Shown: in pieces, positions 8,174 to 34,564 of the stretch
How positions within the stretch are numbered: position 1 is the first letter of the stretch
Layout of the letters: the number at the start of each line of letters is the position of its first letter
NCBI GenBank assembly: GCA_021815445.1
Contig: JAKAGM010000001.1
Location: forward strand, 154,910 to 218,909
DNA from: a bacterium
GTDB taxonomy: Bacteria; Patescibacteriota; Patescibacteriia; UBA10025
Direction of reading: 5' to 3'
DNA: 64,000 nt
Position numbers and translations under genes: made by a program
Notes under the pieces: generated by a model
Databases searched by the model: none
What the model was told of the DNA's origin: nothing
Seen by the model: only the letters and a program-made list of their open reading frames with translations

Positions 8174-8180
8174 ATATCCT

Positions 8181-9272
8181 ATGGGTAAAAGACCGGAAGG
8201 CGTCACAGAATACACCTGGGGGGCCCGCAAGAGCCGAAAAAAAATAATTCTTATCTCATCTGCCGCCGTAGTAGTAGTGGCAGCCGCCGTGGCGGGCTTT
8301 CTCTTTTTTAGCAAAGGAGAAAAACCGCCGACAAACTCTACCAACGCTTCGCTCGGCCCCAATATGACCGCGGGACAATACCTCCCAAGGAAAATAGACG
8401 GGGTGATGGCGATTGTTGATAAGTCTAATGTATTTCCGGTTGCAATCATGATAGAGAATCTCGTGTCTGCTCGTCCGCAGGCGGGTTTAGGGGATGCAAA
8501 TGTTGTTTATGAAGCTTTAGCGGAAGGCGGTATTACCCGCTTCATGGCAATTTTTGCTTCGGGTGCTGATATAAAAAAAATCGGGCCAGTACGGTCGGCG
8601 AGACCGTATTATCTTGACTGGGCAAAAGAATATGGCGCGCTTTATGTACATATCGGAGGAAGTCCCCAGGCAATTGCGGATATTAAAGCAAAGGGAGTCT
8701 TTGACTTGAACCAGTTTTACCATTCCCCGAATTTCTATCGAGATAGCGCCCGTCCTGCCCCGCACAATCTCTACACGACAACAAGATTGCTTGCTTTTGC
8801 GCTGCGCGACCTCAAAGCAAGCGATACGGGTTCGTATGATAGTTGGACGTTTAAGGATCCCGAGAATACAGCGTCGCTTCCTACGGATCAAAAAACTATT
8901 GAGATAGATTTTTCAAGCTTCAGCTACAAGGTTGACTACACTTTTGATCGGGAAAAAAACATATATTTAAGGAACCAGGCCGGAGCGCCGCACCTCGATG
9001 CTGATGGCAAGCAAATTACAGCGCGAAATGTGATTGTCCAATACACCAAAACAAGCCTTGCGGACAGCACTGGCAGGCTCACGATGGTCACGACAGGTGA
9101 GGGGAGGGCGCTGTTCTTCAGGGACGGATCAGTAATTCAAGGCAGTTGGAAAAAAGATCAGAGCGGCTCGAGGACCCGGTATGTGGATGCATCAGGCAAC
9201 GATATACAGCTTAATCGGGGAACAACGTGGGTAGAGATTGTCCCTGATGACCGTCAGGTCGTGTATAAGTAG
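8181..9272 (+). CDS. DUF3048 (YerB-like) domain protein, membrane-anchored, paralog 1
   Basis: ATG at 8181 lies 8 nt after the rplY stop. N-terminal TM helix. Conserved core MIENLVSARPQAGLGDANVVYEALAEGGITRFMAIF typical of DUF3048. Confidence 0.6.
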   Translation: MGKRPEGVTEYTWGARKSRKKIILISSAAVVVVAAAVAGFLFFSKGEKPPTNSTNASLGPNMTAGQYLPRKIDGVMAIVDKSNVFPVAIMIENLVSARPQAGLGDANVVYEALAEGGITRFMAIFASGADIKKIGPVRSARPYYLDWAKEYGALYVHIGGSPQAIADIKAKGVFDLNQFYHSPNFYRDSARPAPHNLYTTTRLLAFALRDLKASDTGSYDSWTFKDPENTASLPTDQKTIEIDFSSFSYKVDYTFDREKNIYLRNQAGAPHLDADGKQITARNVIVQYTKTSLADSTGRLTMVTTGEGRALFFRDGSVIQGSWKKDQSGSRTRYVDASGNDIQLNRGTTWVEIVPDDRQVVYK

Positions 9273-9301
9273 GCCAAGAAAAATAAAAACAAAAGACAGC
9301 C

Positions 9302-10429
9302 ATGAGCAACGCAAAAACAAAGCGTGCGGAAATATTTTTTAGGCATCCACGTGTCTTGGGTACGTGCGTTTTTTGCATTTTCACGCTCATAGCGTGGGTT
9401 GGGGTCGTCCGCCTTGCCGATGCCTCGCGGGTAAAGTGGTCCTGGTTGCTCAATACGAGCGGCACAACTTCTCCGGCCATTGCCGATACCGTCCCGGATG
9501 CGCCAGCGATTGTTGCCCAATACAGACTGCTCGACGGTATGAGTGCGACGGGAACCCAGGCCGCTGACTGGCCTGCTGCAGTCATGATCGAGAATCTCCC
9601 CAGCGTTCGGCCTCAATCGGGTCTCGGTGATGCGATGGTTGTCTACGAAGCGCTTGCCGAGGGAGGGGCTACTCGCTTTATGGCCCTTTTTGATCCCCAA
9701 ATTTCCGCGGCTGAAAAAATAGGTCCTGTCAGGTCTTCCCGTCCATATTATATCGAATGGCTCGGGGAGTATGACGCTCTCTACGCGCATGCCGGCGGAT
9801 CGCCAAAAGCGCTGCTGGTTATTTGGGAAGCACGGGTAAAGAACGTAGAAGCCCTGGGTCCTGACGGAAAGTATTTTTGGCGCGACCATTCGATTGCGGC
9901 TCCGCATAATCTTTTTACCAGCGCGGCCGAACTGAGGCTCGCATTGCAAACCAAGGGCTGGCTCGCGATGAAAGCCAGTTTTTTGCCGTGGACATTTGTC
10001 GATGATGCGACAGTAGACCAGCGGGGTGAGGACGGGAAAAGCGCCGAATTTAATTTTTCCACGGGAAAAAGCTATCTCGTACGGTGGCAGTATCAACGCC
10101 CGACAAACTCGTACCTGCGTTATAACGCCGGAGTGCCCCATATAGACAACAATACTGGTAAGCAGCTCGAAGCGAAGAACGTGGTAGTCCAGCTTGTTGA
10201 TCCTCCTGAGCTTGACGGGACAGGGAAGGGAAGACTCGATATCTATGTCGGCGGGACGGGTAAAGCATGGGTATTCAACAACGGCAACGCGATTGAGGCC
10301 ACGTGGAAAAAACTGTCCCGAACGGACAGAACGAGGTTCTACGATAGTGCTGGGCATGAGATACCCATGGTGCGCGGAGCTACATGGGTTCACGTTGTAC
10401 CTAAGGCACAGGCTGTTACGTACCGGTAG
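9302..10429 (+). CDS. DUF3048 (YerB-like) domain protein, membrane-anchored, paralog 2
   Basis: Same architecture and motifs as the upstream gene (AVMIENLPSVRPQSGLGDAMVVYEALAEGGATRFMALF). Tandem duplication. Confidence 0.6.
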   Translation: MSNAKTKRAEIFFRHPRVLGTCVFCIFTLIAWVGVVRLADASRVKWSWLLNTSGTTSPAIADTVPDAPAIVAQYRLLDGMSATGTQAADWPAAVMIENLPSVRPQSGLGDAMVVYEALAEGGATRFMALFDPQISAAEKIGPVRSSRPYYIEWLGEYDALYAHAGGSPKALLVIWEARVKNVEALGPDGKYFWRDHSIAAPHNLFTSAAELRLALQTKGWLAMKASFLPWTFVDDATVDQRGEDGKSAEFNFSTGKSYLVRWQYQRPTNSYLRYNAGVPHIDNNTGKQLEAKNVVVQLVDPPELDGTGKGRLDIYVGGTGKAWVFNNGNAIEATWKKLSRTDRTRFYDSAGHEIPMVRGATWVHVVPKAQAVTYR

Positions 10430-12825: not shown

Positions 12826-15405
12826 TCACTTCAGCAGAACCATCTTCTTAATCTCCACCGCCTGATCGGTGACGAGACGGTAGAAGTACATGCCCGATGC
12901 GTACTGTAAAGCGTTCCACTGTGCAGTGTGCTCTCCGGCAAGCTGGTTCTCATCGGCAAGAGTCTCAATCCTCTGGCCAAGGATATTGTAAATGTCCAAC
13001 CTGACATGAGTACCCACCGGAAGAGTGTACCTGATCGTCGTGCCCGGGTTGAACGGGTTCGGGTAATTCTGGGACAGGGAGAATGTCCGAGGCAGAGTAT
13101 TGTCTCCTCCATGTGCCGTGATCTTAGGCGAACCGGGAATGGTGCGCCTAATGACGATGCACCTGTCCGCATACCCGTCACTGTTGTAATCCAGCCAGAA
13201 TTCTTGGGTGGACGGGCGGAATACGCCGATGTTGGTGCCGCAATTACCGGTCCAGTCGCCGACGATTGGCGAATCACCCGCATCTCCATACGTCCGGGAG
13301 AAGTCAGCAACGTGGTCGTTATCGTAATCCAACCAGAAGGTCCTGGTAGAAGGACGGTAAATACCGATGTTCCAGTCCAGGTCGCAGTCCCAATCACCAA
13401 CAAGAGGGATATCACCGTTATCCCCGAAAGTGACGGAAAAATCAGCTACACCGTTGTTGTCGTAATCTAACCAGAATGTCCGGGTAGAGTGGCGAAAGAT
13501 TCCTATCCGGGTATAGCCGTTGCCGAGCCAATCTCCGGCTAGAGGAATATCGCCGCCATCACCATAGGTGATGCCGATGTCCATCTGGCCGTTGTTGTCG
13601 TAATCCAGGTAAAACACCCGGTAGGCCGGACGATAGAAACCGACACTGTAGTAGGTATTGCCGTCCCAGTCACCGGCCAAAGGTTTGTCTACGGCTGAGC
13701 TGTAATGAAGCTCCAGCTCCGTATACCCGTCATTGTTGGTGTCCAGATAGAAGGTTTGCGTCTCGTCGGCATAGACACCGACCTCGAAGATCCCGTCCCC
13801 GTTCCAATCACCTGCGATGGGGGTGACGGTCAAGTTGGCGAATGACTCAGAAGAGTCACTGCCTGCGGCGTGATAGGTCCCGCCCGAGCAGGTTCCAAGC
13901 ACGTCAACCGCCGGACTGCCAGTCTCATAGATACGATGTTGAGTACCGGCGCTGTTCTTGAAGTCCTGGCACCACTTCCCATTCAAATAGAAACGATCGA
14001 TGGTGGCGCAACCAAATAGGTTTACCCCACCAAGTTCATCGTAGCGGGATTTAATGCTCCCATACACCCAGTAGGCCTCGTTCGTGGCCGAAGTATTGCA
14101 CTCCCAGTTCTCTTGGTCGTACATGATCCTGCCGGATCCGTCGTCGCCACCAGTGAATTCCTGAATCAGGATACTGCCGGAAAGAACATGGACCTGACCG
14201 TCATTCCCAGAGCTTGGGTTCCCTACATCGCGGCGGGCGCCGTTGCGGTCATAGGCATCGGTAAAGAGGTAGGAGTACTGGTTGTTCCATCCGGAAGAAG
14301 TCCAGCCGGGTGTCGTCGTCGTGTTGCACTTGATGGTGGTTCCGTCCTGGATGTACCCTTTCTGGAAATCCTGACGCCAGTGGTCTGGGTTCTCGGTGTA
14401 CTTGTACCGGTTGGTGATCGGCATTCCAAGGGCCGAATTCGGCCCTCCCTGTCCTGACGGACCGTCTGAACAGCTGGGCGTTGGACAGCTGCCGCTGCAT
14501 TCTGCCTCAAGGTTGTCCCACGTAGCCCATTCTTGATCGCCGACACAGTAGGCATGTCTTGCGCCACCTAGGGCGTCGTATACGACCGCGCCAGCATAGA
14601 AGCCGCCACCGTAAACCGTGCGATAACAATTGACAGCAGTGTTTGTGCCAGACTGGTAAAGCGAGTTTGGATTGTACGCATGGTACCAACCAATCGATCC
14701 AGCCGTTCCACCAAGCCATTGATTCGGCGACTGTGACACGGCGTATGGGTTGCGGTCATTCAGAGCAGTAGATTTCCGGAGGTCAATGATGTTGGAGTTG
14801 ACAGAGGTGTAGAAAGTGCTCGCAGGTGGGCTGCTTGAGCAGTCGCACGGATCGGGGTACCCATCGGTGACGGTTTGACCAAGGTAGTTCTTAAAATCAA
14901 CATACACCTCAGTCATGTCCTTTGTCGCAGGGTTCGCCGTCCCTTGCGTGTTGTAGTGTATATGCGATGGCCATTGGTCATCCGTTACGCCTGTTGTCCC
15001 GCAGAATCCAACCACTTGCCCCTTCTCAACCTTCTCGCCGACGCTCACGACAATCTCTGTTTGGTGTGCCAGCCGGCCATAGTAGCCGTCCCCATAGTCA
15101 ATTAGGACAACATTGCCATACGGACTATTTGCTCCACTCTGTTGCTTGGATCTTCCAGCAAACACTATTCGCCCTGAATCTGGAGCTAGAAGTGGATACC
15201 CCAGGTCGTTGGCGCCGGTTCCATAATTGTAGTCCCATGCGTCTTCGCCGGAATGGGATACGCTCCCATTCCAGCCTTGCGCACACCACCATGTATCACC
15301 TGCCATAAACGGTAGCCCGATGTCTGGCGGCGTTGCTAAGGCTTTCGAACTGCCCAGAGCGACTATGACAGCCGCTGCCACGAAACGACCGATCGTCCTC
15401 TTCAT
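12826..15405 (-). CDS. secreted multidomain protein: M23 (LytM) peptidase + FG-GAP/VCBS-like repeats + type IX secretion system C-terminal sorting domain
   Basis: 859 aa. Signal peptide. M23 motifs (HSGEDAWDYNYG ... GQVVGFCGTTG ... SHIHY). Five ~46-aa repeats of P[LI]AGDWDGNG...G[IV][FY]R....F[YW]LDYDNNG. The final ~80 aa (LSQNYPNPFNPGTTIRYTLPVGTHVRLDIYNILGQRIETL...ASGMYFYRLVT) match the Por_Secre_tail/T9SS CTD consensus closely. Strong AGGAGG RBS. Confidence 0.8.
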   Translation of the reverse strand: MKRTIGRFVAAAVIVALGSSKALATPPDIGLPFMAGDTWWCAQGWNGSVSHSGEDAWDYNYGTGANDLGYPLLAPDSGRIVFAGRSKQQSGANSPYGNVVLIDYGDGYYGRLAHQTEIVVSVGEKVEKGQVVGFCGTTGVTDDQWPSHIHYNTQGTANPATKDMTEVYVDFKNYLGQTVTDGYPDPCDCSSSPPASTFYTSVNSNIIDLRKSTALNDRNPYAVSQSPNQWLGGTAGSIGWYHAYNPNSLYQSGTNTAVNCYRTVYGGGFYAGAVVYDALGGARHAYCVGDQEWATWDNLEAECSGSCPTPSCSDGPSGQGGPNSALGMPITNRYKYTENPDHWRQDFQKGYIQDGTTIKCNTTTTPGWTSSGWNNQYSYLFTDAYDRNGARRDVGNPSSGNDGQVHVLSGSILIQEFTGGDDGSGRIMYDQENWECNTSATNEAYWVYGSIKSRYDELGGVNLFGCATIDRFYLNGKWCQDFKNSAGTQHRIYETGSPAVDVLGTCSGGTYHAAGSDSSESFANLTVTPIAGDWNGDGIFEVGVYADETQTFYLDTNNDGYTELELHYSSAVDKPLAGDWDGNTYYSVGFYRPAYRVFYLDYDNNGQMDIGITYGDGGDIPLAGDWLGNGYTRIGIFRHSTRTFWLDYDNNGVADFSVTFGDNGDIPLVGDWDCDLDWNIGIYRPSTRTFWLDYDNDHVADFSRTYGDAGDSPIVGDWTGNCGTNIGVFRPSTQEFWLDYNSDGYADRCIVIRRTIPGSPKITAHGGDNTLPRTFSLSQNYPNPFNPGTTIRYTLPVGTHVRLDIYNILGQRIETLADENQLAGEHTAQWNALQYASGMYFYRLVTDQAVEIKKMVLLK

Positions 15406-18863: not shown

Positions 18864-18944
18864 GCCGATGTAGTCCCGTCCCGCCCGGGCGGGACGAGGA
18901 TCCACGATCCCGCGGCGGGATCGGGACTCAGTTGGTCCGCCTGA
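18864..18944 (+). repeat. degenerate tRNA-Thr 5' fragment (GCCGATGTAG ... CTCAGTTGGT) split by a GC-rich insert carrying a perfect 20-bp palindrome
   Basis: gccgatgtag at 18864-18873 and ctcagttggt at 18930-18939 reproduce the 5' end of the adjacent tRNA-Thr. The insert contains CGTCCCGCCCGGGCGGGACG (18877-18896) and the near-palindrome GATCCCGCGGCGGGATC. Confidence 0.5.
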
Positions 18945-19017
18945 GCCGATGTAGCTCAGTTGGTAGAGCAACTCCATGGTAAGGAGTAGGTCCGCGGTTC
19001 AAATCCGCGCATCGGCT
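18945..19017 (+). tRNA. tRNA-Thr(GGT)
   Basis: Cloverleaf by hand: acceptor GCCGATG/CATCGGC, D arm GCTC-AGTTGGTA-GAGC, anticodon stem ACTCC/GGAGT with loop ATGGTAA, T arm CGCGG-TTCAAAT-CCGCG, discriminator T. No encoded CCA. Confidence 0.85.
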
Positions 19018-19110
19018 TAGGCGGGGCAAGTGTCGCAACTCCATGCCAAGTCCCGTCGAATGGCGGGAGTAAGGAGTAGGTCCGCGGTTCAAATCCGCGC
19101 ATCGGCTCCA
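19018..19110 (+). pseudogene. pseudo-tRNA: 3' two-thirds of tRNA-Thr(GGT) duplicated, with a 23-nt insert inside the anticodon loop and an encoded CCA
   Basis: GCAACTCCATG + [CCAAGTCCCGTCGAATGGCGGGA] + GTAAGGAGTAGGTCCGCGGTTCAAATCCGCGCATCGGCTCCA. There is no 5' acceptor strand or D arm, so it cannot fold into a tRNA. Confidence 0.5.
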
Positions 19111-19113
19111 TGG

Positions 19114-19197
19114 GGGTGGATACCGAAGCGGTCAAACGGGGCAGACTGTAAATCTGCTGGCCTCCGGCCTTCGTAGGTTCGAATCCTACTCCACCCA
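19114..19197 (+). tRNA. tRNA-Tyr(GTA), long variable arm
   Basis: Acceptor GGGTGGA/TCCACCC, anticodon stem GCAGA/TCTGC with loop CTGTAAA, variable arm TGGCCTCCGGCCTTC, T arm GTAGG-TTCGAAT-CCTAC, discriminator A. Confidence 0.85.
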
Positions 19198-19364
19198 GAT
19201 AGTCGATTTAATGAAGATTACCAATCTCCTCATAATTCGATATAGTAACGAAGTCTGGTGAGGATTCGAAGGGCAGAAGCGAACCCCGCGGCCGCGGGGG
19301 AGCGTCGGCGAATGCGAGCAAGCGAAGCATTCGACGCTGCCCAGGGCCCGAATCCTACTCCACC
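19198..19364 (+). repeat. GC-rich palindromic spacer ending in a 24-nt direct repeat of the tRNA-Tyr 3' end (cgaatcctactccacccagatagt at 19341-19364)
   Basis: Contains perfect palindrome CCCCGCGGCCGCGGGG, the long imperfect hairpin GCGTCGGCGAATGC...GCATTCGACGC, and an outer stem GGGCAG/CTGCCC. The copy keeps the T-loop and acceptor 3' strand but lacks the T-stem 5' strand. Confidence 0.5.
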
Positions 19365-19391
19365 CAGATAGTGAAAAGTCCCCTGAGTCTT

Positions 19392-19466
19392 GCCAGCGTA
19401 GCTCAGTGGTAGAGCAACTGTTTTGTAAACAGTAGGTCGTCGGTTCAAATCCGACCGCTGGCTCCA
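19392..19466 (+). tRNA. tRNA-Thr(TGT), CCA encoded
   Basis: Acceptor GCCAGCG/CGCTGGC, anticodon stem ACTGT/ACAGT with loop TTTGTAA, T arm GTCGG-TTCAAAT-CCGAC, discriminator T followed by CCA. Confidence 0.85.
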
Positions 19467-19501
19467 GCCGATCAATTATTTACTTTATTTTAAAAAAAAC
19501 T

Positions 19502-19657
19502 ATGTCACAGGATAACCTTACCAAGCTCGAGTGCACGGTGTGCCATCGTATCAATTATCACACCTTTAAGAACAAGAAAAAGCTCAAGAACCGTCTTGAG
19601 ATGAAAAAGTTCTGCACGTGGTGCGGCAAGCATCAGGTACACAAAGAGACGAAGTAA
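19502..19657 (+). CDS. rpmG: 50S ribosomal protein L33 (51 aa; below ORF-track size cutoff)
   Basis: [51 protein letters not shown]. The CxxC...CxxC zinc ribbon and the conserved C-terminal HKETK identify L33. Located in the classic tRNA-Thr/Tyr-rpmG-tRNA-Trp context. Confidence 0.85.
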
Positions 19658-19673
19658 CCCTGAGTCTCATTGA

Positions 19674-19748
19674 GGGGGTATGGTGAAATGGCTATCACAA
19701 CGGTCTCCAAAACCGTTATTCTAGGTTCGAATCCTAGTACCCCCGCCA
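19674..19748 (+). tRNA. tRNA-Trp(CCA), CCA encoded
   Basis: Acceptor GGGGGTA/TACCCCC, anticodon stem ACGGT/ACCGT with loop CTCCAAA, T arm CTAGG-TTCGAAT-CCTAG, discriminator G followed by CCA. Confidence 0.85.
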
Positions 19749-22648: not shown

Positions 22649-23209
22649 ATGACCAAATATATCCTCCATGGCGGAGTTACGAAAGGGGCGGATCCGATGA
22701 ATGATAGTTTCTTCCAGGAAGTTACACGGGAGAGCGCCGGGAAAACCAGAATCCTGCTTAACTATTTTGCGCGAAAACCCGAGGAGTATGAACAGTCTGC
22801 CAAGGAGGACAAGAAACGTTTTTTAGAAAATAGCCCTCATACTGATGTAGAATTCGACATCGCGGATCCTCACCGACTTGCCGAACAATTGGAGAGATGC
22901 CCCATAATGTACATTAAGGGAGGAAATACCCCCTTGCTTCTCAAGCTGCTATCTCATGCGCAAGATTTTCGCAAATGTATCAATGGCAGAGTGATCGCCG
23001 GGGTATCAGCCGGTGTTAATGTGCTTTCTGCGTATTATTGGTCGAACCATAATACAAGGATTATGGAAGGGCTGGGCATTCTCAATATCAAAGTAATATG
23101 CCATTTCCATCCTGAGGATAATGAAATAGTGAAAAAGCTTTTATCCTACAAAGAAGATTTGCCGTTGCTCACATTGCCCGAGTATCATTGGGCGGTGATG
23201 TACCGGTAA
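22649..23209 (+). CDS. peptidase S51-like (dipeptidase E / cyanophycinase family) protein
   Basis: IYIKGGNT motif and GVSAG nucleophile motif (RVIAGVSAGVNVL). 186 aa. Confidence 0.55.
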   Translation: MTKYILHGGVTKGADPMNDSFFQEVTRESAGKTRILLNYFARKPEEYEQSAKEDKKRFLENSPHTDVEFDIADPHRLAEQLERCPIMYIKGGNTPLLLKLLSHAQDFRKCINGRVIAGVSAGVNVLSAYYWSNHNTRIMEGLGILNIKVICHFHPEDNEIVKKLLSYKEDLPLLTLPEYHWAVMYR

Positions 23210-23360
23210 TTCGCCCACATCCTTTTTTACTGGCTTTTTTGACTTCACTATTAATCCTTGATACAGTGTCACCGCGCCAGTGGATGTTTTTTGGCGTTGT
23301 ACGGTGCGTTCGTTGACAATTAACGCAGTAAATATGGGCCATTTTCAGGAGGGTTTCTCA

Positions 23361-24401
23361 ATGGCAAGGAAGATCGCAGTGATTCCCGGAGACGGAATCG
23401 GACCAGAAGTCATCAGACCGGCTGTGGATGTGCTCAAACATCTTCAGCCGGGATTCGAGTTGGACATGTTTGACCTGGGTGCTGAGAGATATCTCAAGGA
23501 TGGCACGACGATGCCGCCGGAGCTGATGGCGTCTTTGAAGGACGGCGTCTATGATGCCGTCTTACTCGGCGCCCTTGGGGATCCGCGCGTGCCCGGGAAT
23601 GAACCCGCGCATGACATACTCCTTGGATGCCGGTTCGGGCTGGATCTGTTTGTGAACCACCGCCCCGTCAGATTGCTCGTCCCGCGGTACTCGCCACTCA
23701 AGACCGCTTCCGGGATCGATATGACCATATTCCGGGAGAACACCGAGGGTGAGTACGTCGGCATGGGCGGGACGATGCGCAAAGGCCTCCCTGACGAGAT
23801 TGCAACCGAGCTGTCTGTCGCGACCCGTCACGGAGTTGTGCGTATCATCGAGTATGCGTTCATGTGGGCCCAGCAGAACGGGAAGAGACGAGTCTGTTGT
23901 GCGACCAAAGCGAATGCCCAGCCTGAAACCGGGGGTGTGTGGATGCGGGCATTCAGAGACATTTCCGCTCGGTATCCCCGAATTGACGCTCGGCACATGT
24001 ATATTGACGCCGTCGCGGCGCAGATGGTTTTGCATCCCGAGGATTTTGACGTGATTGTCACCAGCAATTTGTTCGGGGACATCATCACTGATCTCGGCGC
24101 CGCCATTGCCGGCAGCATGGGCCTCGCGGCAAGCGGTAACATCAATCCCGCGGGCATCGGGCTCTTTGAGCCGGTGCATGGCAGCGCTCCGGATATCGCA
24201 GGAAAGGGAATCGCAAATCCCATGGCGGCCATCCTGAGCGTCGGGATGATGTTCGCCCATATGAAGTTGCCGGAACTTGCAGAGAAGGTCGAGAACGCGG
24301 TCACCGCGTGCCTCGAGGAGTCGATTGTCACCCAAGATCTTAGTGGGACATACACGACCGTTGAAGTCGGCAATGCGGTTCTGCAGAAACTCGTCGAATG
24401 A
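23361..24401 (+). CDS. isocitrate/isopropylmalate dehydrogenase family enzyme (LeuB/tartrate-DH/homoisocitrate-DH-like)
   Basis: MARKIAVIPGDGIGPEV N-terminus, C-terminal NLFGDIITDLGAAIAGSMGLAASGNI block. A GGAGGG RBS lies 6 nt upstream. Confidence 0.8.
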   Translation: MARKIAVIPGDGIGPEVIRPAVDVLKHLQPGFELDMFDLGAERYLKDGTTMPPELMASLKDGVYDAVLLGALGDPRVPGNEPAHDILLGCRFGLDLFVNHRPVRLLVPRYSPLKTASGIDMTIFRENTEGEYVGMGGTMRKGLPDEIATELSVATRHGVVRIIEYAFMWAQQNGKRRVCCATKANAQPETGGVWMRAFRDISARYPRIDARHMYIDAVAAQMVLHPEDFDVIVTSNLFGDIITDLGAAIAGSMGLAASGNINPAGIGLFEPVHGSAPDIAGKGIANPMAAILSVGMMFAHMKLPELAEKVENAVTACLEESIVTQDLSGTYTTVEVGNAVLQKLVE

Positions 24402-24436
24402 AATGAATCGAACGAATCCATGGTAAAGGAGCAAAC

Positions 24437-26356
24437 ATGAAACTTACGGGACGAGTTCTGGTCCTCTATGAGGATCCGGAACTCATACGACGCCAGTTGG
24501 ACGGGGAAGACATTCCGTATACCGGGCAGCCGCTTGCCTTTGGCGTCAACACTGACCAGATGATCAGCGGCGGCGCTTGTACGCTCGGGTATACCGAGGA
24601 CATTCTCGGCCCGCATTTCCTCGAGAACTTTCTCGGTGTTGTGAATGCCGATGATGTTCACAAGGGCGGGTTCCAGGTGATCGTGGCGGGTGAGGCGTAC
24701 GGTACGGGGTCGAGCCGTGAAGTCGCCGTGGTCGCACACCGGGGGGCGGGGATCAAGCTCGTGATAGCACGAAGTTGTGAACGCATCTTCATGGAGAACA
24801 TGGCCTATTCCGGCATGCCGTTCACGGTTGATTTCAAAATTCTCGAACGACTGCTCTCTGGCGGGGACGTGAACTTCAGCGAGCTTAGCGGGGCCCTCCC
24901 ATCTTTTTTCGGGGAAGTTACGAGCTCCGGCGGGCTCTTGCCCTATGGCTCGGCATGGTGGAGGGGAGACATTTCGCCTTGGTACGATACAGGGCGCAAA
25001 CCTCATCCGATGACCATCGTGGAAAAGATCATCGCGTCACAAGCATGGTCTGGCTGTAAGTCGTTCGGCGTACACGCGGTGAATCCTGGCGAACAACTTC
25101 TCTGTAAGGTCGGGTTCCGCGGGATGCATGAATACACAGCAGGCATGTGCTTCTCGTTGTTCCGTGAAGCCTATGGTGACTCCAGACCGCATACCTCCCG
25201 ACTTCAGGACGTGGTGTGCTTTCAGGATCATTTTGTGCTGATCGACTCACCGACCACGCCGGTCGAGGCTAAAAACGCGCGGCTCGGTCCATCAAGGCAG
25301 CTGACTGATGAGATGGTGGCCGCCTGCCAAGAGTACGGCGTTCCACTGCACGGACCGGGCCGTGATCGAGCGGCAGGCGTTTGTCACCGGCTCGTTGTCG
25401 AGCAGTATGCCCGTCCAGGCGATATCGTTGTGCTGACTGACTCCCATACGCCGACGGCAGGTGTGATGAACTGTTTTGCGTTCGGCGTTGGATCGACGGC
25501 GATGGCGTTCGCTCTGCGGACTGGCATGATCCCGGTGACAGTTCCGAAGACAGTCCGCGTGATTGTGAACGGGCGTCCCCACTCCGGGCTTTCGCCGAAA
25601 GATCTTATCCTTCATCTGATCGGGGATCCGTATTTCCGAGAAAAGCGGTGGATGAGTAATCCTACTGACACCTGTGTGATTCAGTTCGGGGGGAAAGGAC
25701 TGAGCTCTTGGAGCGTCGATGAGCTCTCCGTGCTCACCAACATGACTGTGGAGGGAGGGCTCATGAGCGGTGTAGTTGAGCCGTGTCTTCCGATCTACGA
25801 TTTTCTGAATGCGTACCGGGGTGATGGTATGGCGGGTTCGATGGTCCATCCCGATGACGGCGCGCATTATGAGCGGGTTATCGAGGTCGACCTTGCCGAG
25901 GTGCCACTCACCATCGCTTTACCGGGTGACTCACGGAACCGCGCCTTATTGAGCGATCATACGGGGGTGGAAGTCCACAACGTCGTGATCGGCTCCTGCA
26001 CTGGCGCCTCACTTAAGGATCTCAGATCCGCGTCAACAGTTTTGCGCGGCAGAACGATCAAACCGGGCGTTCGTGTCACAGTGAGTCCTTCAAGTTCGGA
26101 TGTAGCCGCACGGGCCGAGGAAGCGGGGATTCTAACACTTTTCCGTTCCCTTGGTGCCGTCGTCACTGAACCAGGTTGCGGAGCATGTATCGGCAACGGA
26201 CCCGGTGTTCCATTACCTGGTGAGGTTACCGTATCCACGACCAACCGCAACTTTGACCGACGCATGGGTTCTGACGGGCCTGTTTATCTCGTTTCGCCAT
26301 CTGTCGCTGCGGCCAGTGCCGTGACGGGTCGTCTGACTGACCCGAGAAGCCTTTAA
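24437..26356 (+). CDS. aconitase-family dehydratase with permuted fusion: LeuD-like swivel domain (N-terminal) + LeuC-like catalytic domains (C-terminal)
   Basis: N-terminal ~170 aa carry VIVAGEAYGTGSSREVAVVAHRGAGIKLVIARSCERIF (LeuD signature GxGSSRE). The C-terminal part carries DSHTPTAG, GVGSTAMA, GSCTGAS, GCGACIG (Fe-S cysteines) and TTNRNFDRRMG. 639 aa. Confidence 0.75.
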   Translation: MKLTGRVLVLYEDPELIRRQLDGEDIPYTGQPLAFGVNTDQMISGGACTLGYTEDILGPHFLENFLGVVNADDVHKGGFQVIVAGEAYGTGSSREVAVVAHRGAGIKLVIARSCERIFMENMAYSGMPFTVDFKILERLLSGGDVNFSELSGALPSFFGEVTSSGGLLPYGSAWWRGDISPWYDTGRKPHPMTIVEKIIASQAWSGCKSFGVHAVNPGEQLLCKVGFRGMHEYTAGMCFSLFREAYGDSRPHTSRLQDVVCFQDHFVLIDSPTTPVEAKNARLGPSRQLTDEMVAACQEYGVPLHGPGRDRAAGVCHRLVVEQYARPGDIVVLTDSHTPTAGVMNCFAFGVGSTAMAFALRTGMIPVTVPKTVRVIVNGRPHSGLSPKDLILHLIGDPYFREKRWMSNPTDTCVIQFGGKGLSSWSVDELSVLTNMTVEGGLMSGVVEPCLPIYDFLNAYRGDGMAGSMVHPDDGAHYERVIEVDLAEVPLTIALPGDSRNRALLSDHTGVEVHNVVIGSCTGASLKDLRSASTVLRGRTIKPGVRVTVSPSSSDVAARAEEAGILTLFRSLGAVVTEPGCGACIGNGPGVPLPGEVTVSTTNRNFDRRMGSDGPVYLVSPSVAAASAVTGRLTDPRSL

Positions 26357-26387
26357 AACAAAATATCAACTTGCACATTGTTCCAAG

Positions 26388-26412
26388 ACGAGGGAATCCT
26401 CGTCTTTTTTTA
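26388..26412 (+). terminator. rho-independent terminator after the aconitase-family gene
   Basis: GACGAGG-gaat-CCTCGTC followed by ttttttt. Confidence 0.6.
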
Positions 26413-26413
26413 T

Positions 26414-26443
26414 TTGCCACGTACGCTCTTCCTAAGGTACAAT
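26414..26443 (+). promoter_or_regulatory. sigma70-like promoter TTGCCA-18-TACAAT; downstream ATG 7 nt after the -10 (leaderless)
   Basis: ttgccacgtacgctcttcctaaggtacaat then caaacgcATG. Confidence 0.45.
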
Positions 26444-26450
26444 CAAACGC

Positions 26451-27221
26451 ATGACGCGCCAACTTCGCACAATGATGTCTGCCGCCCGGGCCGGGGGGAA
26501 AATTCTCCGGAAATATTTTGGGCAGGAACTTACACTTGTGCAAAAAACCAAGCGCAGTGATTTTCTCACAAAAGCTGATCTCGGCTCTGAGCGGGCGATT
26601 TTGTCTGTTCTGAGGAAACATTTCCCCCGGTACAATAGTTACGCAGAGGAATCGGGGGAGCGGCATGTGGGTTCTAACTGGACATTTGTCGTTGACCCCC
26701 TCGATGGCACCTATAACTTTGTCATCGGAGTTCCCCAGTTTTCAATTCCCATTGCGCTCACACATGAAGGCAGATTAGTAGCTTCGGTTGTCTTTCACCC
26801 GATACTCGACTGTATGTATTACGCCGAGAAAGGTGGCGGCGCTTTCCTCAACGGCAAGCGTATCAGGGTGAATCGGGAAACGCGGTATGCCCATGCAACA
26901 ATCTCCTACGTCGGCGGTTATCATAACGCCTTGCGTGCACACTGGAAGGTTATCAGCTCCATTGTCCAGCTTAGGTGCAAGCGGATGACCAACTTTTGGA
27001 CGCCCGCACTTGACTTTTGCCTACTCGCTTCGGGAAAGATTGAGGGCGTTGTCAATTACAACTCGGAAATTTATGATTTTCTTGCAGGGAAGCTTATCGC
27101 ATTGGAAGCCGGGGCTCGTATTACGAATTTTAGGGGAAAGCCGGAAAAAGGCGATTTGAATAGGGAGTTTATTGCGACTAACGGCAGGATCCATGCTCAA
27201 TTGCTCCGTTCAGTAAAGTAA
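26451..27221 (+). CDS. inositol monophosphatase family protein (SuhB/IMPase-like)
   Basis: Motifs FVVDPLDGTYNF and WDxAAG-like region (FWTPALDFCLLASG). 256 aa. Confidence 0.85.
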   Translation: MTRQLRTMMSAARAGGKILRKYFGQELTLVQKTKRSDFLTKADLGSERAILSVLRKHFPRYNSYAEESGERHVGSNWTFVVDPLDGTYNFVIGVPQFSIPIALTHEGRLVASVVFHPILDCMYYAEKGGGAFLNGKRIRVNRETRYAHATISYVGGYHNALRAHWKVISSIVQLRCKRMTNFWTPALDFCLLASGKIEGVVNYNSEIYDFLAGKLIALEAGARITNFRGKPEKGDLNREFIATNGRIHAQLLRSVK

Positions 27222-29083: not shown

Positions 29084-29713
29084 ATGGACGCGTACGTACA
29101 ATTTAAATGGAAATACAACCTCATCCGTCTTGGTTTTTTAGGATGGATGGTTTTTGAACTCCTCAACTGGGTAAAGATTTTACATTTTTCTCTTGATTTT
29201 TCATGGGCGGGATTACTGCTCACTGTCAGCTGGATTTGGGGAAGCATTGAATTCGCGTCATGGAAGCTCAGAAAATCAGGAATGGAGTCTTTGCCATGGG
29301 CAGCGTACCTCATAGGATTGGTCGGTACAAGCTGGGACGCATTTGGCGATGTAGCCCACCTATATTCGAGTGTGATGTATTATGACAAATATGCTCATTT
29401 TTTCGGCGGAGGTTCTGCTGCCATCGTGAGTTTATTTATTTTGTGGCGCTTGGTGCAAGGAGGAAAAATACTTCTCGATCCGCGGATGATGGGATTCTTT
29501 GCAATTTGTATGGCCAATTTTCTCGGGATCCTGTATGAACTTGAAGAGTATTCAGAATCTTACTTTTTTCATAACAATAGAATGGGGGACGCGTTCGATA
29601 CATCCACCGATGTGATAAATAATTTCCTGGGCGCTGCGGTAATGGTGGTAATAGCACTCATAGTACTCAGGAAAAAAAAGAATTCGGAGAGCGCTCATCT
29701 GACTGCCGTATAA
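29084..29713 (+). CDS. hypothetical membrane protein, tandem paralog A
   Basis: Shares with the next gene the pattern NLIRLGFL...SWxWGSxEFxSxKLxKSG...AxYLIGLxG...YDxxxHFFGGxxAA. Confidence 0.5.
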   Translation: MDAYVQFKWKYNLIRLGFLGWMVFELLNWVKILHFSLDFSWAGLLLTVSWIWGSIEFASWKLRKSGMESLPWAAYLIGLVGTSWDAFGDVAHLYSSVMYYDKYAHFFGGGSAAIVSLFILWRLVQGGKILLDPRMMGFFAICMANFLGILYELEEYSESYFFHNNRMGDAFDTSTDVINNFLGAAVMVVIALIVLRKKKNSESAHLTAV

Positions 29714-29716
29714 TTT

Positions 29717-30394
29717 ATGTTACGGAATGTGTTCATCAATATCATCCGTCTCGGTTTCCTGGTCTTGGTATCTTTCGAGGTGCTTGGCCTCACACGCATT
29801 GTTCAAGTTGATAGTCCCTACTCCTGGCTTGGATTTATAATCACCGGTTGTTTTATCTGGCTTTCTCTGGAGATTGTTTCTTCTCGCCTAAAAAAGTCAG
29901 GCTTGGAGCAGCTGTCACCTGCGATGTATCTCATCGGTCTCATTGGCAGCTACTTAAATCTTTTTGGCATTTTGACAGGGCTTTTTACGCGCTATGGCTG
30001 GTATGACCAGGTCATCCACGGCTTTGGGGGCGCCGCCGCGGCATTGGTTTTTTGCTCCGTTTTCTCTAAACTGCAAATTGCGCGGAAGATATCCGTCGGT
30101 CCGCGTCTTCTCGGCTTTTTCACATTTTGCTCGACTATGCTGCTAAGTTCTCTCTATACGACCGAAGAGTTCCTCGAAACAAAGATTTTTCATGACGGAC
30201 GCATGGGCTCAGGGATTATAGGAGGATTTCACGCCGATAATCATTTTCTATGGAATGCCATTGGGGCTGCTCTCGTTGCGTTTGTTTCAGCTGTTGTCAT
30301 AAGAAGGCGTGAAAATTCGCTTTCCTACTCCAAAAAGTCTCTTTCTCTGCGCCGGGGCTCTTCTCAACTGACGAGAGATCCGGTCAAATCCTGA
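29717..30394 (+). CDS. hypothetical membrane protein, tandem paralog B
   Basis: Paralogous to 29084-29713 (NIIRLGFLVLVSFEV...AMYLIGLIGSYLNLFG...YDQVIHGFGGAAAALV). Starts 3 nt after the previous stop. Confidence 0.5.
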   Translation: MLRNVFINIIRLGFLVLVSFEVLGLTRIVQVDSPYSWLGFIITGCFIWLSLEIVSSRLKKSGLEQLSPAMYLIGLIGSYLNLFGILTGLFTRYGWYDQVIHGFGGAAAALVFCSVFSKLQIARKISVGPRLLGFFTFCSTMLLSSLYTTEEFLETKIFHDGRMGSGIIGGFHADNHFLWNAIGAALVAFVSAVVIRRRENSLSYSKKSLSLRRGSSQLTRDPVKS

Positions 30395-32392: not shown

Positions 32393-32770
32393 ATGGAAGT
32401 GTGGATTTTCGGCAACCCTGACCTTCCTGAGGACTCGCTCCCGATACGGCTTCACTCAGAACTCATGAAACGCTTCCCTGCGCTGAGTTTTCGAATTCTC
32501 GATCCCTTGGATGAGTGGCAAATTCCAGACAAACTTGAGATGATAGATACGGTCCGGGGCATCGACCATGTTCGCGCTTTCACATCGCTCGATGAATTCG
32601 AAGGTTCGCCTCACGTGACCATGCACGATTTCGACCTCGGGATGCAGCTTCGTTTTTTGGCAAAACTCAAAAAACTTCCTCCGTTCATAATGTACGGGGT
32701 GCCCGATACTTTTTCAGTCGGCCAAGCGCTTCGCGAACTTACGCCGATGCTCGATCAACGCGCAAGGTAA
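32393..32770 (+). CDS. hydrogenase maturation endopeptidase (HycI/HoxW/FrhD-like)
   Basis: 126 aa. N-terminal MEVWIFGNPDLPEDSLP resembles the GNxxxGDDGxG motif region. Conserved Asp/His candidates are present (DTVRGIDHV, HVTMHDFDLG). Consistent with the C-terminal extension on the adjacent large subunit. Confidence 0.55.
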   Translation: MEVWIFGNPDLPEDSLPIRLHSELMKRFPALSFRILDPLDEWQIPDKLEMIDTVRGIDHVRAFTSLDEFEGSPHVTMHDFDLGMQLRFLAKLKKLPPFIMYGVPDTFSVGQALRELTPMLDQRAR

Positions 32771-34043
32771 GGAAGTGTGACGCGCAACTCATGCAGGGAT
32801 CATATGCCCGTATGAGTTTTTCGAGCTCGAGCTGGAGCGTTTCCTCGGACGGGCCGGACGGGAGGAGCTCCTCGACGCGGCGAGCCATGTCCTGCTCGAT
32901 GTTAATCTGATTCTGGCCCGTCGGCACGACTATTTCGCCTTCAATGACGTTGCCGTCTTTGCCGATGGAAACTTTGTGATAGAGCGTACCGCGGGGAGCT
33001 TCGATCACTCCGATGCCGGTTCCCTCGGTTCGTGACGGCGCGACAATCTTTTCCGGTACAAACGTATAGTGCTCGAGGATATCGAGAGAATCATCGACGC
33101 AATGCAAGAGCTCGATAGCCTGGGCGAGGTTATTATGGAAAATGTTGGTCGAGGGAAAGCGATTGAGCGTCTGCGGGATACTCGCGCGGGTTTTTACGTG
33201 GAGTGTATCTTTTGCGAGATTGATGCGAGCGAGCGCGCCCACCATGAACGATTTCCCTTTAAAGGCGTACCCGGAAGCGTGTGAATAGGGGATAATGACA
33301 TGCTCAAGGTGGCTGCGGTAATCAGTTTCACGGATGAAATCGCCGGCATCACTTACAATATTCCCTTCGAGGTAATTGAACGGATTTGCGACAAGCGCCA
33401 TAAACTTAGTTTTTCTGTCAAACGCGTAATCGGATTTTTCGAACCGTTCAATTGTTCGGAGGACAGCGGGACGGATTTCACGAAGTTTGGCGACCGCTTG
33501 TTTGATCTCTTCTGGCTTTGGAATCTTAAAAAATCCGCCGATGGTCGGATTCACGGCATGTACGCTCCTTCCCGCTATGATGATTGAGAGGTAATTTCCC
33601 GCTGCCTTAATATCGAACGCATCGTGAAGTATCTGGTGCTGGACGGGATCGTTTTCGTCAAACTCCAGAAACGAATCTTTGCCGTACATGTCGGGCATGG
33701 CAAAAAGGTAAAGGTGGAGGGCGTGGTCGCGAATGTTCAACCCGTACATCGTCAGTTTCTTCATGATCTGTGATTGCGGCGACGGTGCAATACCCAGCGC
33801 ATGTTCACAAGCTTCGATGCTGCAAATGAGGTGGGCGTTTGAACAGGTGCCGCAAATGCGCGCAAGGAGAGTCGGAAGCATCCGGTATGGTTTGCCTCGC
33901 ATTGCCTGGGTGTAAAAACGTTTGAACTCAGTGATCCCGAATCTGCAGTGCTCAACCTTTCCTTTTGTAATTTTCACGTCGAGAGTGGCCGCGCCCTCGA
34001 CCTTGGTAATTTCTTTTGTCAGAGAGAGGTCTACCTGGTGCAT
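32739..34043 (-). CDS. [NiFe]-hydrogenase large subunit (group 3-like), with C-terminal extension after the terminal His
   Basis: L1 motif RICGTCSNAH (RxCGxCxxxH) and L5 motif DPCMSCASH (DPCxxCxxH), then the 11-residue tail FLTLRVDRASA. N-terminal VEGAATL lies where the usual R[IV]EGH block is expected. 434 aa. Confidence 0.85.
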   Translation of the reverse strand: MHQVDLSLTKEITKVEGAATLDVKITKGKVEHCRFGITEFKRFYTQAMRGKPYRMLPTLLARICGTCSNAHLICSIEACEHALGIAPSPQSQIMKKLTMYGLNIRDHALHLYLFAMPDMYGKDSFLEFDENDPVQHQILHDAFDIKAAGNYLSIIIAGRSVHAVNPTIGGFFKIPKPEEIKQAVAKLREIRPAVLRTIERFEKSDYAFDRKTKFMALVANPFNYLEGNIVSDAGDFIRETDYRSHLEHVIIPYSHASGYAFKGKSFMVGALARINLAKDTLHVKTRASIPQTLNRFPSTNIFHNNLAQAIELLHCVDDSLDILEHYTFVPEKIVAPSRTEGTGIGVIEAPRGTLYHKVSIGKDGNVIEGEIVVPTGQNQINIEQDMARRVEELLPSGPSEETLQLELEKLIRAYDPCMSCASHFLTLRVDRASA

Positions 34044-34048
34044 AGATA

Positions 34049-34564
34049 TTAAACAATATGAAATTCTTTCAACAGACCCGTGAGAACGCTCATGAAGGTG
34101 GCTTCATTCATCGGGCAGCCCGGCACGTTGATGTCGACGGTAATGACCTCGGAAAGTTTCTGTGCCTTCGGCAGGTACGCGAAACGTTCGAGAACGGGCT
34201 GTATTTCCTTAAGTCTCCCGGGATCAAACTGGTTTCGCTGCGTTGAGGGTAGTCCTATCACTGCACAGGCCCCGATAGCGACAACCTTGTGTGATTTTTT
34301 TCTGATCTCTTTCACCCGATCCACATGGTTTTTTGATGAAAGCGCGCCCTCAATAAATGCCACATCCAGCTCGTCCAGGATGTTATGCGACTGCAGGACC
34401 CTTGCGTGGCGAATGTCCAATACTCGTTTCCATTCCTGCCAATGTTCGTTCATCAGCTCGGTAAAAAGGATAGTACTGTCCTCGCAGCAGCTGAACGTAA
34501 ACCAGCCTATACGCAGTTTTTTTACTGATTTTCCACCTAATGAATTATTCGGCTGGTTATGCAT
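34049..34564 (-). CDS. [NiFe]-hydrogenase small subunit, minimal NuoB-like form (proximal [4Fe-4S] cluster only)
   Basis: 171 aa. Cysteines in FSCCEDS, AIGACAV and the GCP motif VDINVPGCPMNEAT. No medial or distal cluster cysteines. Confidence 0.8.
   Translation of the reverse strand: MHNQPNNSLGGKSVKKLRIGWFTFSCCEDSTILFTELMNEHWQEWKRVLDIRHARVLQSHNILDELDVAFIEGALSSKNHVDRVKEIRKKSHKVVAIGACAVIGLPSTQRNQFDPGRLKEIQPVLERFAYLPKAQKLSEVITVDINVPGCPMNEATFMSVLTGLLKEFHIV

Follow-up and report, generated by a model that had tools for sequence, protein, structure and literature searches.

The 64-kb window analyzed here (the whole stretch of 64,000 nucleotides at positions 154,910 to 218,909 of contig JAKAGM010000001.1, GenBank assembly GCA_021815445.1) carries two adjacent plus-strand genes. 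The first (positions 23361 to 24401) encodes a LeuB-like dehydrogenase of 346 amino acids (aa), beginning MARKIAV and matching Pfam Iso_dh at 6e-94, and the second (24437 to 26356) encodes a 639-aa aconitase-family protein, recognized by Pfam, NCBIfam, and solved-structure matches, in which a LeuD-like domain is fused in front of LeuC-like domains. We judge it rather probable that the two proteins would act in a 2-oxoacid elongation cycle on an uncharged alkylmalate, the fused protein as its isomerase and the other as its dehydrogenase. The strongest evidence for this assignment is a three-gene row on a Streptomyces plasmid, the link between the synthase of that row and one from an assumed Myxococcota genome, cassettes in nonribosomal peptide synthetase (NRPS) clusters, and a neighbor-joining (NJ) tree of the dehydrogenases. 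A first-pass annotation had described a LeuB-like gene, a 35-nucleotide (nt) gap, and a 639-aa protein with its swivel domain first, and the open reading frames (ORFs), the domain order, and the quoted motifs are as it gave them.

Plasmid NZ_CP139046.1 of Streptomyces sp. KN37 carries a polyketide synthase (PKS)/NRPS cluster (395216-408964) with two crotonyl-CoA carboxylase/reductase (CCR; ccrA) genes. Three consecutive genes of this cluster encode a 423-aa protein of the LeuA family, a 664-aa fusion annotated as "aconitase family protein" with 36% identity to the window protein, and a 340-aa "isocitrate/isopropylmalate family dehydrogenase" that is 40% identical to the window dehydrogenase and has the motifs HGREILLG and KANAV. 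The KN37 cluster looks like one that would elongate a 2-oxoacid by a route of its own to make an unusual starter or extender unit. The KN37 LeuA-like protein is 40 to 42% identical to a divergent 416-aa LeuA/NifV-like synthase (179 bits against cutoffs of about 500) encoded two genes from a dehydrogenase homologue in L010 (ena:ERZ25071330:ctg580776_35x_l; 6.87 Mb), which we assume to be from a member of the Myxococcota. The plasmid dehydrogenases nearest to that of the window (45 to 47% identity) are encoded in NRPS clusters of Streptomyces NBC_00868 and Tu 4113. There, cassettes of LeuA-like, leuC, leuD, aminotransferase, and dehydrogenase genes are found, and the dehydrogenases share Glu-to-Gly and Val-to-Ala changes in the substrate pocket. 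The pocket changes shared with these Streptomyces enzymes hint that the side chain of the substrate may not be isopropyl. The 2-oxoacid elongation role that the first-pass annotation had offered as an example is borne out for the family by the KN37 row of synthase, fused isomerase, and same-clade dehydrogenase.

The KN37 cluster further holds genes for an acyl-CoA dehydrogenase, a fatty acyl-AMP ligase, and KAS III. In L010, a mevalonate-pathway cluster (L010:4996-15715) contains genes for hydroxymethylglutaryl (HMG)-CoA reductase, three GHMP-family kinases or decarboxylases, and a type-2 IDI-like FMN_dh protein, with no HMG-CoA synthase gene visible in the cluster. Directly after these genes come the LeuB-like dehydrogenase, a thiolase, the 416-aa LeuA/NifV-like synthase, and a 734-aa protein without a family match.

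The window dehydrogenase contains the catalytic residues R91, R101, R125, Y132, K183, D216, D240, and D244, all invariant in the dehydrogenase alignment. Its substrate-pocket loop reads A83-H-D-I-L-L-G-C-R91 (positions 23607 to 23633; alignment and motif table of 85 sequences), whereas canonical LeuB has E-x-G-[IL]-L-L-x-x-R, and its K183-A-N-A186 motif (23907 to 23918) has Ala in place of the Val of canonical K-x-N-V-L. In comparison with canonical LeuB, the Leu-Leu pair is retained and three positions differ, with Ala83 in place of Glu, Asp85 in place of Gly, and Ala186 in place of Val; Asp85 and Ala186 are invariant in the alignment. Three motif classes can be distinguished among the 85 sequences. 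LeuBs encoded next to leuCD, together with Mycobacterium tuberculosis LeuB, have LE.G[IL]LL..RF and K.NVL; tartrate dehydrogenases (TDHs) have HISLWG and KSNG; and HA.[DE]ILLG.RF, mostly with K.NA, is the pattern of the window sequence, those of Myxococcota, and many from soil. All of the leuCD-adjacent LeuBs compared keep E...LL, and all keep NV except for one partial locus without data. The window protein contains neither the HISLWG and KSNG motifs of TDH nor those of isocitrate dehydrogenase (IDH). In the NJ tree, the three dehydrogenases of the candidate phyla radiation (CPR) type are joined in one clade at 98% bootstrap, with a Myxococcota group as its sister; the Streptomyces enzymes are sister to Myxococcota plus CPR, and all of these are separate from the leuCD-linked LeuBs and from TDH. 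These data indicate that the window protein is a predicted beta-decarboxylating 3-substituted-malate dehydrogenase of a LeuB-derived clade.

In the fused protein, Pfam places Aconitase_C (residues 78 to 127; 1e-11) upstream of Aconitase (residues 222 to 637; 2e-75), and the motifs GTGSSRE, DSHTPTAG, GSCTGAS, and GCGACIG are all present. The domain order is LeuD-like swivel, linker, and LeuC-like catalytic domains (4-1-2-3). The swivel or small-subunit domain (residues 1 to 170; positions 24437 to 24946) is of the archaeal LeuD-like type by profile alignment and phmmer, contains the family-specific insert EDPELIRRQLDGE, and ends in GGLLPY; the family profile aligns residues ~35 to 170 to the entire small subunits 3vba, 2pkp, and 1v7l, GGLLPY included. 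A linker of about 20 residues (171 to 190; positions 24947 to 25006), modeled with predicted local distance difference test scores (pLDDT) of 89 to 94, precedes the LeuC-like N terminus HPMTIVEKIIA, and the alignments to 4kp1 and 4kp2 begin at residue 190. The large catalytic domains 1 to 3 (residues 191 to 639; positions 25007 to 26356) were delimited by alignment to pig aconitase and the Methanocaldococcus jannaschii large subunits and by the conservation table. Residues 190 to 639 align end to end with the large subunits of M. jannaschii homoaconitase (HACN; 202 bits) and isopropylmalate/citramalate isomerase (193 bits). In addition, the first strand is followed, within residues 1 to 53 (24437 to 24595), by an insertion of about 20 residues (DPxLIxRQLxG) that is nearly family-wide and is not found in free LeuD.

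For all of the cluster ligands and catalytic residues of pig aconitase, the alignment shows a counterpart in the fused protein. The ligands C521, C581, and C584 correspond to pig C358, C421, and C424 and are invariant in 82 family members; D264-H265, H317, D335-S336-H337, N435/E439, N603-R604, R609, and S92-S93-R94 are also present. Within G91-S92-S93-R94-E95 (24707 to 24721; alignment, phmmer, and conservation table), we take Ser92 to be the equivalent of the catalytic base Ser642 of aconitase and Arg94 that of Arg644 (pig numbering). Two features are specific to the subfamily: R318 (25388 to 25390), which follows catalytic His317 and is Gln in isopropylmalate isomerase (IPMI), homoaconitase, and aconitase, and D607-R608 (26255 to 26260), within the NRNF-x-G-R motif. 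Both put additional positive charges near the active site. An AlphaFold2 model built on the 82-sequence alignment is confident over its whole length, with a pLDDT of 93.7 and a predicted TM score (pTM) of 0.93. In Foldseek, its large part matches the M. jannaschii IPMI and HACN large subunits (TM score on the target [TMt], 0.87 to 0.90), and the best match for the whole chain is Escherichia coli AcnB, 1l5j (TM score on the query [TMq], 0.74 over 735 columns); mitochondrial aconitase and LeuD small subunits are matched as well. Taken together, the residues and the model indicate that the fused protein is a complete and probably active [4Fe-4S] enzyme of the aconitase superfamily.

The first-pass annotation had called the domain order reversed. 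This is correct in relation to mitochondrial aconitase, AcnA, and the leuC-leuD gene order; the order is, however, the same as in AcnB and AcnX type I. Nor is the architecture unusual, as had been implied: a search with the N-terminal 200 residues found at least 728 cluster representatives at 50% identity, and in the full-length ones (613 to 692 aa) the swivel domain is always N-terminal. The best 120 database relatives are all 634 to 663 aa in length and agree with the window protein in both Pfam domains and in their order. Fungal Leu1 is LeuC-like at its N terminus and has the order 1-2-3-4. For this reason, we do not take the introduction of PMC8184944, which counts fungal IPMI among the enzymes with an N-terminal domain 4, as a precedent for a small-first IPMI. 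The small-before-large "4-linker-1-2-3" order is known from AcnB and AcnX type I (PMC8184944), and here this AcnB/AcnX-I-like order sits in the IPMI/homoaconitase branch of the superfamily.

The LeuD-like specificity loop, G36-VNTDQMISGGACTLGY-T53 (24542 to 24595), was aligned through the family profile, since phmmer of the loop region alone against solved structures gave chance matches only. In this alignment, A47-C48-T49 matches Y-L-V of M. jannaschii IPMI and Y-L-R of homoaconitase. Thr49, opposite the Val of MJ1277, is uncharged and not hydrophobic, a noncanonical residue in the LeuD-like loop whose specificity residues the first-pass annotation had proposed to inspect. The loop GVNTDxMISGxACTLGYT, Thr49 included, is invariant in 63/63 subfamily members, none of which has an Arg in it; in other fused subfamilies the Thr49 position is occupied by Y, F, L, or V and never by Arg. 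In the homoaconitase small subunit MJ1271, the loop Arg (YLRT) reportedly recognizes the distal carboxylate of the substrate. By the logic of that work on MJ1271 and MJ1277, an uncharged Thr49 and the lack of a loop Arg speak for a substrate with an uncharged side chain rather than one with a distal carboxylate. A homocitrate-type substrate, one of those proposed in the first-pass annotation, is disfavored by the missing loop Arg and by the Leu-Leu pair kept in the dehydrogenase pocket. Cys48, at the L position of the YL(V/R) loop, is nearly family-wide in the fusions and absent from free LeuD subunits.

From the gene structure, fold, conserved residues, relationships, and contexts described here, we infer the chemistry, substrate class, and physiological role of the pair as follows. 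C521, C581, and C584 would hold the [4Fe-4S] cluster, and its free iron would bind the substrate. Ser92 and His265 would then dehydrate and rehydrate it, moving the hydroxyl group and converting a 2-substituted to a 3-substituted malate, which the dehydrogenase would oxidize and decarboxylate to a 2-oxoacid with NAD(P)+ and a divalent metal. The side chain would be uncharged and of the alkyl type, without a carboxylate, as in isopropylmalate, citramalate, or a somewhat bulkier analogue. The product probably would serve as a supply of branched-chain 2-oxoacids for transamination.

Several observations weigh against this elongation-cycle reading. Both proteins fall below every curated NCBIfam cutoff for the relevant families: LeuCD, homoaconitase, and aconitase for the isomerase and LeuB, IDH, and TDH for the dehydrogenase. 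Among the LeuC and LeuD models, the fused protein scores 237 against a cutoff of 611 (TIGR02083), 173 against 560 (TIGR00170), 312 against 385 (PRK00402), and, for the small subunit, 56 against 109 (TIGR02087). The dehydrogenase scores 244 against 353 with TIGR00169 (LeuB) and 375 against 393 with NF002898 (actinobacterial-type LeuB), which the Myxococcota homologues pass at 405 to 420; its best solved relative is M. tuberculosis LeuB, 1w0d (47% identity, 287 bits). The pocket residues of the dehydrogenase differ from those of characterized LeuB, and the loop residues of the isomerase differ from those of characterized IPMI, so that isopropylmalate itself is no more than a candidate substrate, sequence alone being insufficient to name it. 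In addition, no literature on a characterized member of the fused family was found, and searches on LeuD-LeuC fusions, CPR isopropylmalate genes, and elongation/CCR clusters found nothing relevant. The same deviating specificity positions and missed cutoffs agree with the first-pass view of an isomerase/oxidative decarboxylase module, both proteins departing from canonical LeuCD and LeuB.

Gene contexts elsewhere also count against tying the family to elongation. In Paraburkholderia, Caballeronia, Roseomonas, Variovorax, and Burkholderia, the fused gene lies in LysR-regulated operons without a dehydrogenase, where its partners encode HMG-CoA lyase, a CoA-transferase of the CaiB (CaiB/BaiF) type, and a transporter of the MFS or TctC type. 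The fused enzyme probably acts in these operons as a hydratase in organic-acid catabolism. Since members of the family sit in catabolic operons, the fused family is not tied to elongation as a whole. In the loci from Paraburkholderia, Caballeronia, Roseomonas, and Variovorax (L176:2101-9932, L180:2062-9932, L177:4765-9983, and L178:5996-9941), an HppD-like dioxygenase gene is also among the partners, and the setting suggests a catabolic pathway for organic acids that has yet to be characterized.

These operons raise the alternative that the window pair is itself catabolic. In that case, the fused enzyme would hydrate a maleate- or citraconate-type dicarboxylate to D-malate or D-citramalate, a D-malate/tartrate-dehydrogenase-like enzyme would convert this product to pyruvate or 2-oxobutyrate, and the cell would feed on the organic acid. 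The LysR-regulated operons with their carboxylate transporters, CoA-transferase, and lyase favor this possibility. So do the scores of the dehydrogenase, for which TIGR02089 (TDH) is the second-best NCBIfam model (335 against a cutoff of 470; NF006048, 312 against 501) and whose clade profile comes close to a tie, at 350 bits with M. tuberculosis LeuB and 344 bits with Pseudomonas putida TDH, a result that again counts against the elongation cycle. However, the catabolic homologues share just 34 to 37% identity with the window protein and lack a dehydrogenase gene beside them, the window dehydrogenase lacks HISLWG and KSNG and belongs to a clade apart from TDH, and Pfam finds no transporter, CoA-transferase, or lyase gene flanking the pair. 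We regard a catabolic role for the window pair as unlikely.

Tricarboxylate chemistry was weighed in the same way. The pair could be a short aconitase and an IDH yielding 2-oxoglutarate or a homoaconitase and a homoisocitrate dehydrogenase (HICDH) yielding 2-oxoadipate. The aconitase superfamily membership and AcnB domain order of the fused protein would fit, and the PRK07229 "aconitate hydratase" and hacA family models score about as well as the IPMI models: archaeal IPMI, hacA-family, and short-aconitase models are about level at 282 to 312 bits, with cutoffs of 385 to 612. The dehydrogenase also has detectable relatives among the structures of HICDH and NAD-dependent IDH. The models for aconitase, homoaconitase, IDH, and HICDH nevertheless all lie far under their cutoffs, with PRK07229 the best of the aconitase models at 293 against 612, the acnB models at 105 to 138 against 782 to 1287, and the IDH and HICDH models at 120 to 286 against 432 to 680. 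The isomerase loop has no Arg matching Arg580 of aconitase or Arg26 of homoaconitase and has Glu54-Asp55 there in the window protein, an acidic residue at position 55 being common, though not invariant, in the subfamily. In the dehydrogenase, the substrate loop reads A-H-D-I-L-L, whereas IDH has Ser or Asn in this loop, and the pocket combines Leu-Leu with the invariant Asp85. The profile aligns Asp85 with an Arg of Thermus thermophilus HICDH, which we take to be Arg85. No citrate synthase or homocitrate synthase gene lies within the 84 kb around the pair. Tricarboxylate chemistry is, in our view, very improbable.

With the elongation cycle as the preferred reading, we turn to the locus itself. 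The neighborhood scan covered 84 kb of the 877-kb contig (the window plus 10 kb past each end). Pfam identifies no genes of leucine, lysine, or tricarboxylic acid (TCA) metabolism in this span besides the pair, in line with the first-pass annotation, which had also correctly named the flanking genes as those for a peptidase S51 (Peptidase_S51; 22649 to 23209) and an inositol monophosphatase (IMPase) family protein (26451 to 27221). Within the same 84 kb there is no gene for LeuA, CimA, homocitrate synthase, or an aminotransferase, which is a further point against an elongation cycle. There is another possibility, which we hold to be rather unlikely, namely, that the pair is a stand-alone salvage module. 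The 0.88-Mb genome would then have no cognate synthase, and a substituted malate or unsaturated dicarboxylate would be taken up and converted in two steps to a 2-oxoacid. In place of isopropylmalate, the substrate would have another side chain, uncharged and probably bulkier, as hinted at by the invariant Thr49 loop and by the Glu-to-Ala and Val-to-Ala changes that the dehydrogenase has in common with elongation enzymes of secondary metabolism. If this were true, the cell would use a substituted malate or dicarboxylate from its host or community to obtain a 2-oxoacid that it does not otherwise make, and the fused family and the dehydrogenase clade would be a distinct enzyme pair that is misnamed in current annotation.

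Each of the two genes is preceded by a ribosome-binding site, AGGAGG before the ATG at 23361 and AAGGAG, within the 35-nt intergenic spacer (24402 to 24436), before the ATG at 24437. Gene callers place the start of the dehydrogenase 27 nt further upstream, which gives a protein of 355 aa. Upstream of the dehydrogenase gene, a consensus scan found a promoter-like site, TTGACT-17-TACAGT with a TG extension (23239 to 23267, plus strand), which is a pattern match alone, such sites being no commoner in the region than the shuffled expectation. A terminator-like hairpin, likewise a pattern match alone, lies at 26385 to 26416 on the plus strand; it begins 29 nt past the second stop codon and has a GC-rich 9-bp stem (AAGACGAGG/CCTCGTCTT; stem-loop, 26385 to 26406) followed by the T-run TTTTTATTTG. 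Because of the promoter-like site, the two ribosome-binding sites, and the hairpin, the two genes look like one transcription unit, a putative operon.

Release factor 1 of the window is most similar to those of Patescibacteria, with Candidatus Kerfeldbacteria as the nearest named group (66% identity). By this similarity, the host is a Kerfeldbacteria-like CPR bacterium with a reduced genome (contig, 877 to 881 kb, or ~0.88 Mb). The same pair is found in the same S51/IMPase setting in an independent assembly, L002 (78% and 62% identity), and, in a rearranged setting, the genes are again adjacent in L008/L009 (65% and 62% identity), an organism that shares 60% identity with the window in its DEAD helicase and 50% in its GreA. 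Adjacency is kept, therefore, in three lineages (window, L002, and L008/L009) at 62 to 78% identity, similar to that of housekeeping genes. Since the pair has diverged about as much as these genes, it has been inherited in the lineage for as long as they have been diverging. A scan for more CPR-type pairs in metagenomes gave no close relative among the matches listed, the best being 58% identical.

The base composition of the pair differs from that of its surroundings. Its guanine-plus-cytosine (GC) content is 0.58, against 0.43 to 0.50 in the flanks, and its GC at third codon positions (GC3) is 0.62 to 0.69, against 0.46 to 0.55. In 3/3 CPR-type genomes, the GC content of the pair exceeds that of its flanks, and Myxococcota loci have a GC content of 0.64 to 0.73. 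A scan of 185,579 species genomes for the subfamily, made with the loop motifs, yielded 168 loci, of which the best 80 were inspected. Nearly all of these 80 are from metagenome-assembled genomes (MAGs) labeled Myxococcota or "Deltaproteobacteria," with some others whose titles look unreliable; identities are 56 to 64%, and named examples include Nannocystaceae, Polyangia, and the cultured Enhygromyxa salina; no CPR genome is among the best 80 of the 168. The GC excess over the flanks and the lack of CPR genomes among these loci argue for a foreign origin. The nearest non-CPR relatives of both proteins are from Myxococcota, where the two genes are unlinked. In the NJ trees, the window and L002 sequences group together with 100% bootstrap. 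The dehydrogenase falls apart from leuCD-linked LeuBs and TDH, and the isomerase falls beside the Myxococcota clade. We conclude that the pair was presumably acquired horizontally from a stock shared with Myxococcota, in a direction of transfer that we infer, and it would have entered an ancestor of the Kerfeldbacteria-like CPR lineage and been kept as an operon. The position of the isomerase is a point against this part of our reading: the NJ tree sets the CPR sequences beside the Myxococcota clade rather than within it, nesting in that clade was rejected on this ground, and Myxococcota are not claimed as the donor.

A foreign GC content, together with the absence of known pathway partners from the 84 kb, could also mark a horizontally acquired remnant without current function that is slowly decaying, the more so as CPR genomes generally lack amino-acid biosynthesis. 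Both ORFs are intact, however, with all catalytic residues conserved, good ribosome-binding sites before both genes, and a terminator-like hairpin after the operon, and adjacency is retained in three lineages as divergent as their housekeeping genes. Decay of this kind is extremely improbable. The elongation-cycle pair instead would be a rare, acquired, Fe-S-dependent metabolic module that has long been kept in a CPR genome otherwise without biosynthetic pathways, and it offers a testable handle on the metabolites that CPR cells obtain from partners.

In the 80 Myxococcota loci, no dehydrogenase gene lies within 10 kb of the fused gene, and its clustered neighbors include none common to more than 11 loci and no metabolic partner. 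Among 18 loci of the dehydrogenase clade, the sole recurring neighbor is a GcvT/YgfZ-like gene, found in 6. In these six soil-metagenome loci (L103, L110, L113, L115, L121, and L122), the gene for the GcvT/YgfZ-like protein (~346 aa, read by eye) lies about 130 nt upstream of that for the HAxDILLG-clade dehydrogenase. YgfZ-type proteins bind folate and are linked to the maintenance of Fe-S enzymes. An Exo_endo_phos gene that lies close to the fused gene both in the window and in L003 and L004 of Myxococcota was considered as part of a cotransferred block and was rejected as a coincidence, with no tblastn similarity at 1e-8.

Full-length homologues of the fused protein are also encoded on 39 plasmid or chromid records of cultured bacteria (34 to 37% identity), and databases hold the family under the generic names "aconitase family protein" and "LeuC." The LeuD-LeuC fusion is a widespread, little-studied variant of the leucine-type 2-oxoacid elongation enzymes and no new kind of system. 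It extends from Myxococcota to Burkholderiaceae, Streptomyces, and CPR, and its gene contexts reveal at least two roles, one in the elongation of 2-oxoacids and one in the catabolism of organic acids. The partner dehydrogenase clade is named LeuB in Myxococcota despite its noncanonical pocket. The value of these results is as a guide to enzyme characterization and to the correction of annotations.

Other features of the region were noted in passing. On the minus strand, genes for the large (NiFeSe_Hases, 434 aa) and small (Oxidored_q6, 171 aa) subunits of a NiFe hydrogenase (32739 to 34564) are syntenic in L002, and another gene (12826 to 15405) encodes an 859-aa protein with Peptidase_M23 and Por_Secre_tail domains, the latter a type IX secretion sorting signal of a kind unexpected in Patescibacteria. 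The tRNA genes Thr-GGT, Tyr-GTA, Thr-TGT, and Trp-CCA are clustered at 18944 to 19748, with a small gene for ribosomal protein L33 among them, just upstream of the block that bears the operon. Tandem paralogue pairs encode DUF3048 proteins (8079 to 10429; 397 and 375 aa) and DUF2238 membrane proteins (29084 to 30394; 209 and 225 aa). Just past the right end of the window (L175:789-5561), genes for a PfkB kinase, a class II aldolase, a split transketolase, ribulose-phosphate 3-epimerase, and RpiB form a sugar-phosphate block that is consistent with fermentative CPR metabolism.

Among known isomerases, the M. jannaschii IPMI/citramalate isomerase (MJ0499 plus MJ1277; 4kp1, 4nqy, and 3vba) matches both parts of the fused protein best, in structure as well as in sequence. 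The two share the large-part fold (TMt, 0.87), an alignment over the whole small subunit, the cluster ligands, GSSRE, and an uncharged specificity residue. The M. jannaschii enzyme has two subunits, whereas the window protein is a single polypeptide that starts with the small domain, has ACT(LG)Y in place of the YLVY loop, and carries the N-terminal insert and the extra R318 and D607-R608; it also stays under the family cutoffs, at 312 against 385 and 298 against 410. The large subunit of methanogen homoaconitase (MJ1003 plus MJ1271; 4kp2 and 2pkp) is as close as that of IPMI (202 bits; TMt, 0.90), and the homoaconitase differs in having the Arg of its YLRT loop where the window protein has Thr49. 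E. coli AcnB (1l5j) has the same order of swivel before domains 1 to 3 and gives the best whole-chain superposition, but it is only 21% identical, carries an additional HEAT-like domain at its N terminus, and has tricarboxylates as its substrates.

For the dehydrogenase, actinobacterial LeuB (1w0d and NF002898) has the catalytic residues and the Leu-Leu pocket in common with the window protein. The window enzyme differs from it by the E-to-A, G-to-D, and V-to-A changes and by its membership in a separate clade whose members never adjoin leuCD. P. putida TDH (3flk) is the second-best relative (236 bits with the single sequence and 344 bits with the clade profile); it differs in its HISLWG and KSNG motifs and in its separate clade, and the window score is 335 against the cutoff of 470. 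The dehydrogenase of the KN37 cassette shares the x-[DE]-I-L-L-G and KANA motifs with that of the window, and identities in the Streptomyces cassettes are 36 to 47%. Those cassettes include a synthase and often an aminotransferase and lie inside PKS/NRPS clusters, whereas the window pair has neither nearby and is found among housekeeping genes. Analogous elongation systems are HphA/HphCD/HphB, AksA/AksDE/AksF, and MAM/IPMI/isopropylmalate dehydrogenase (IPMDH).

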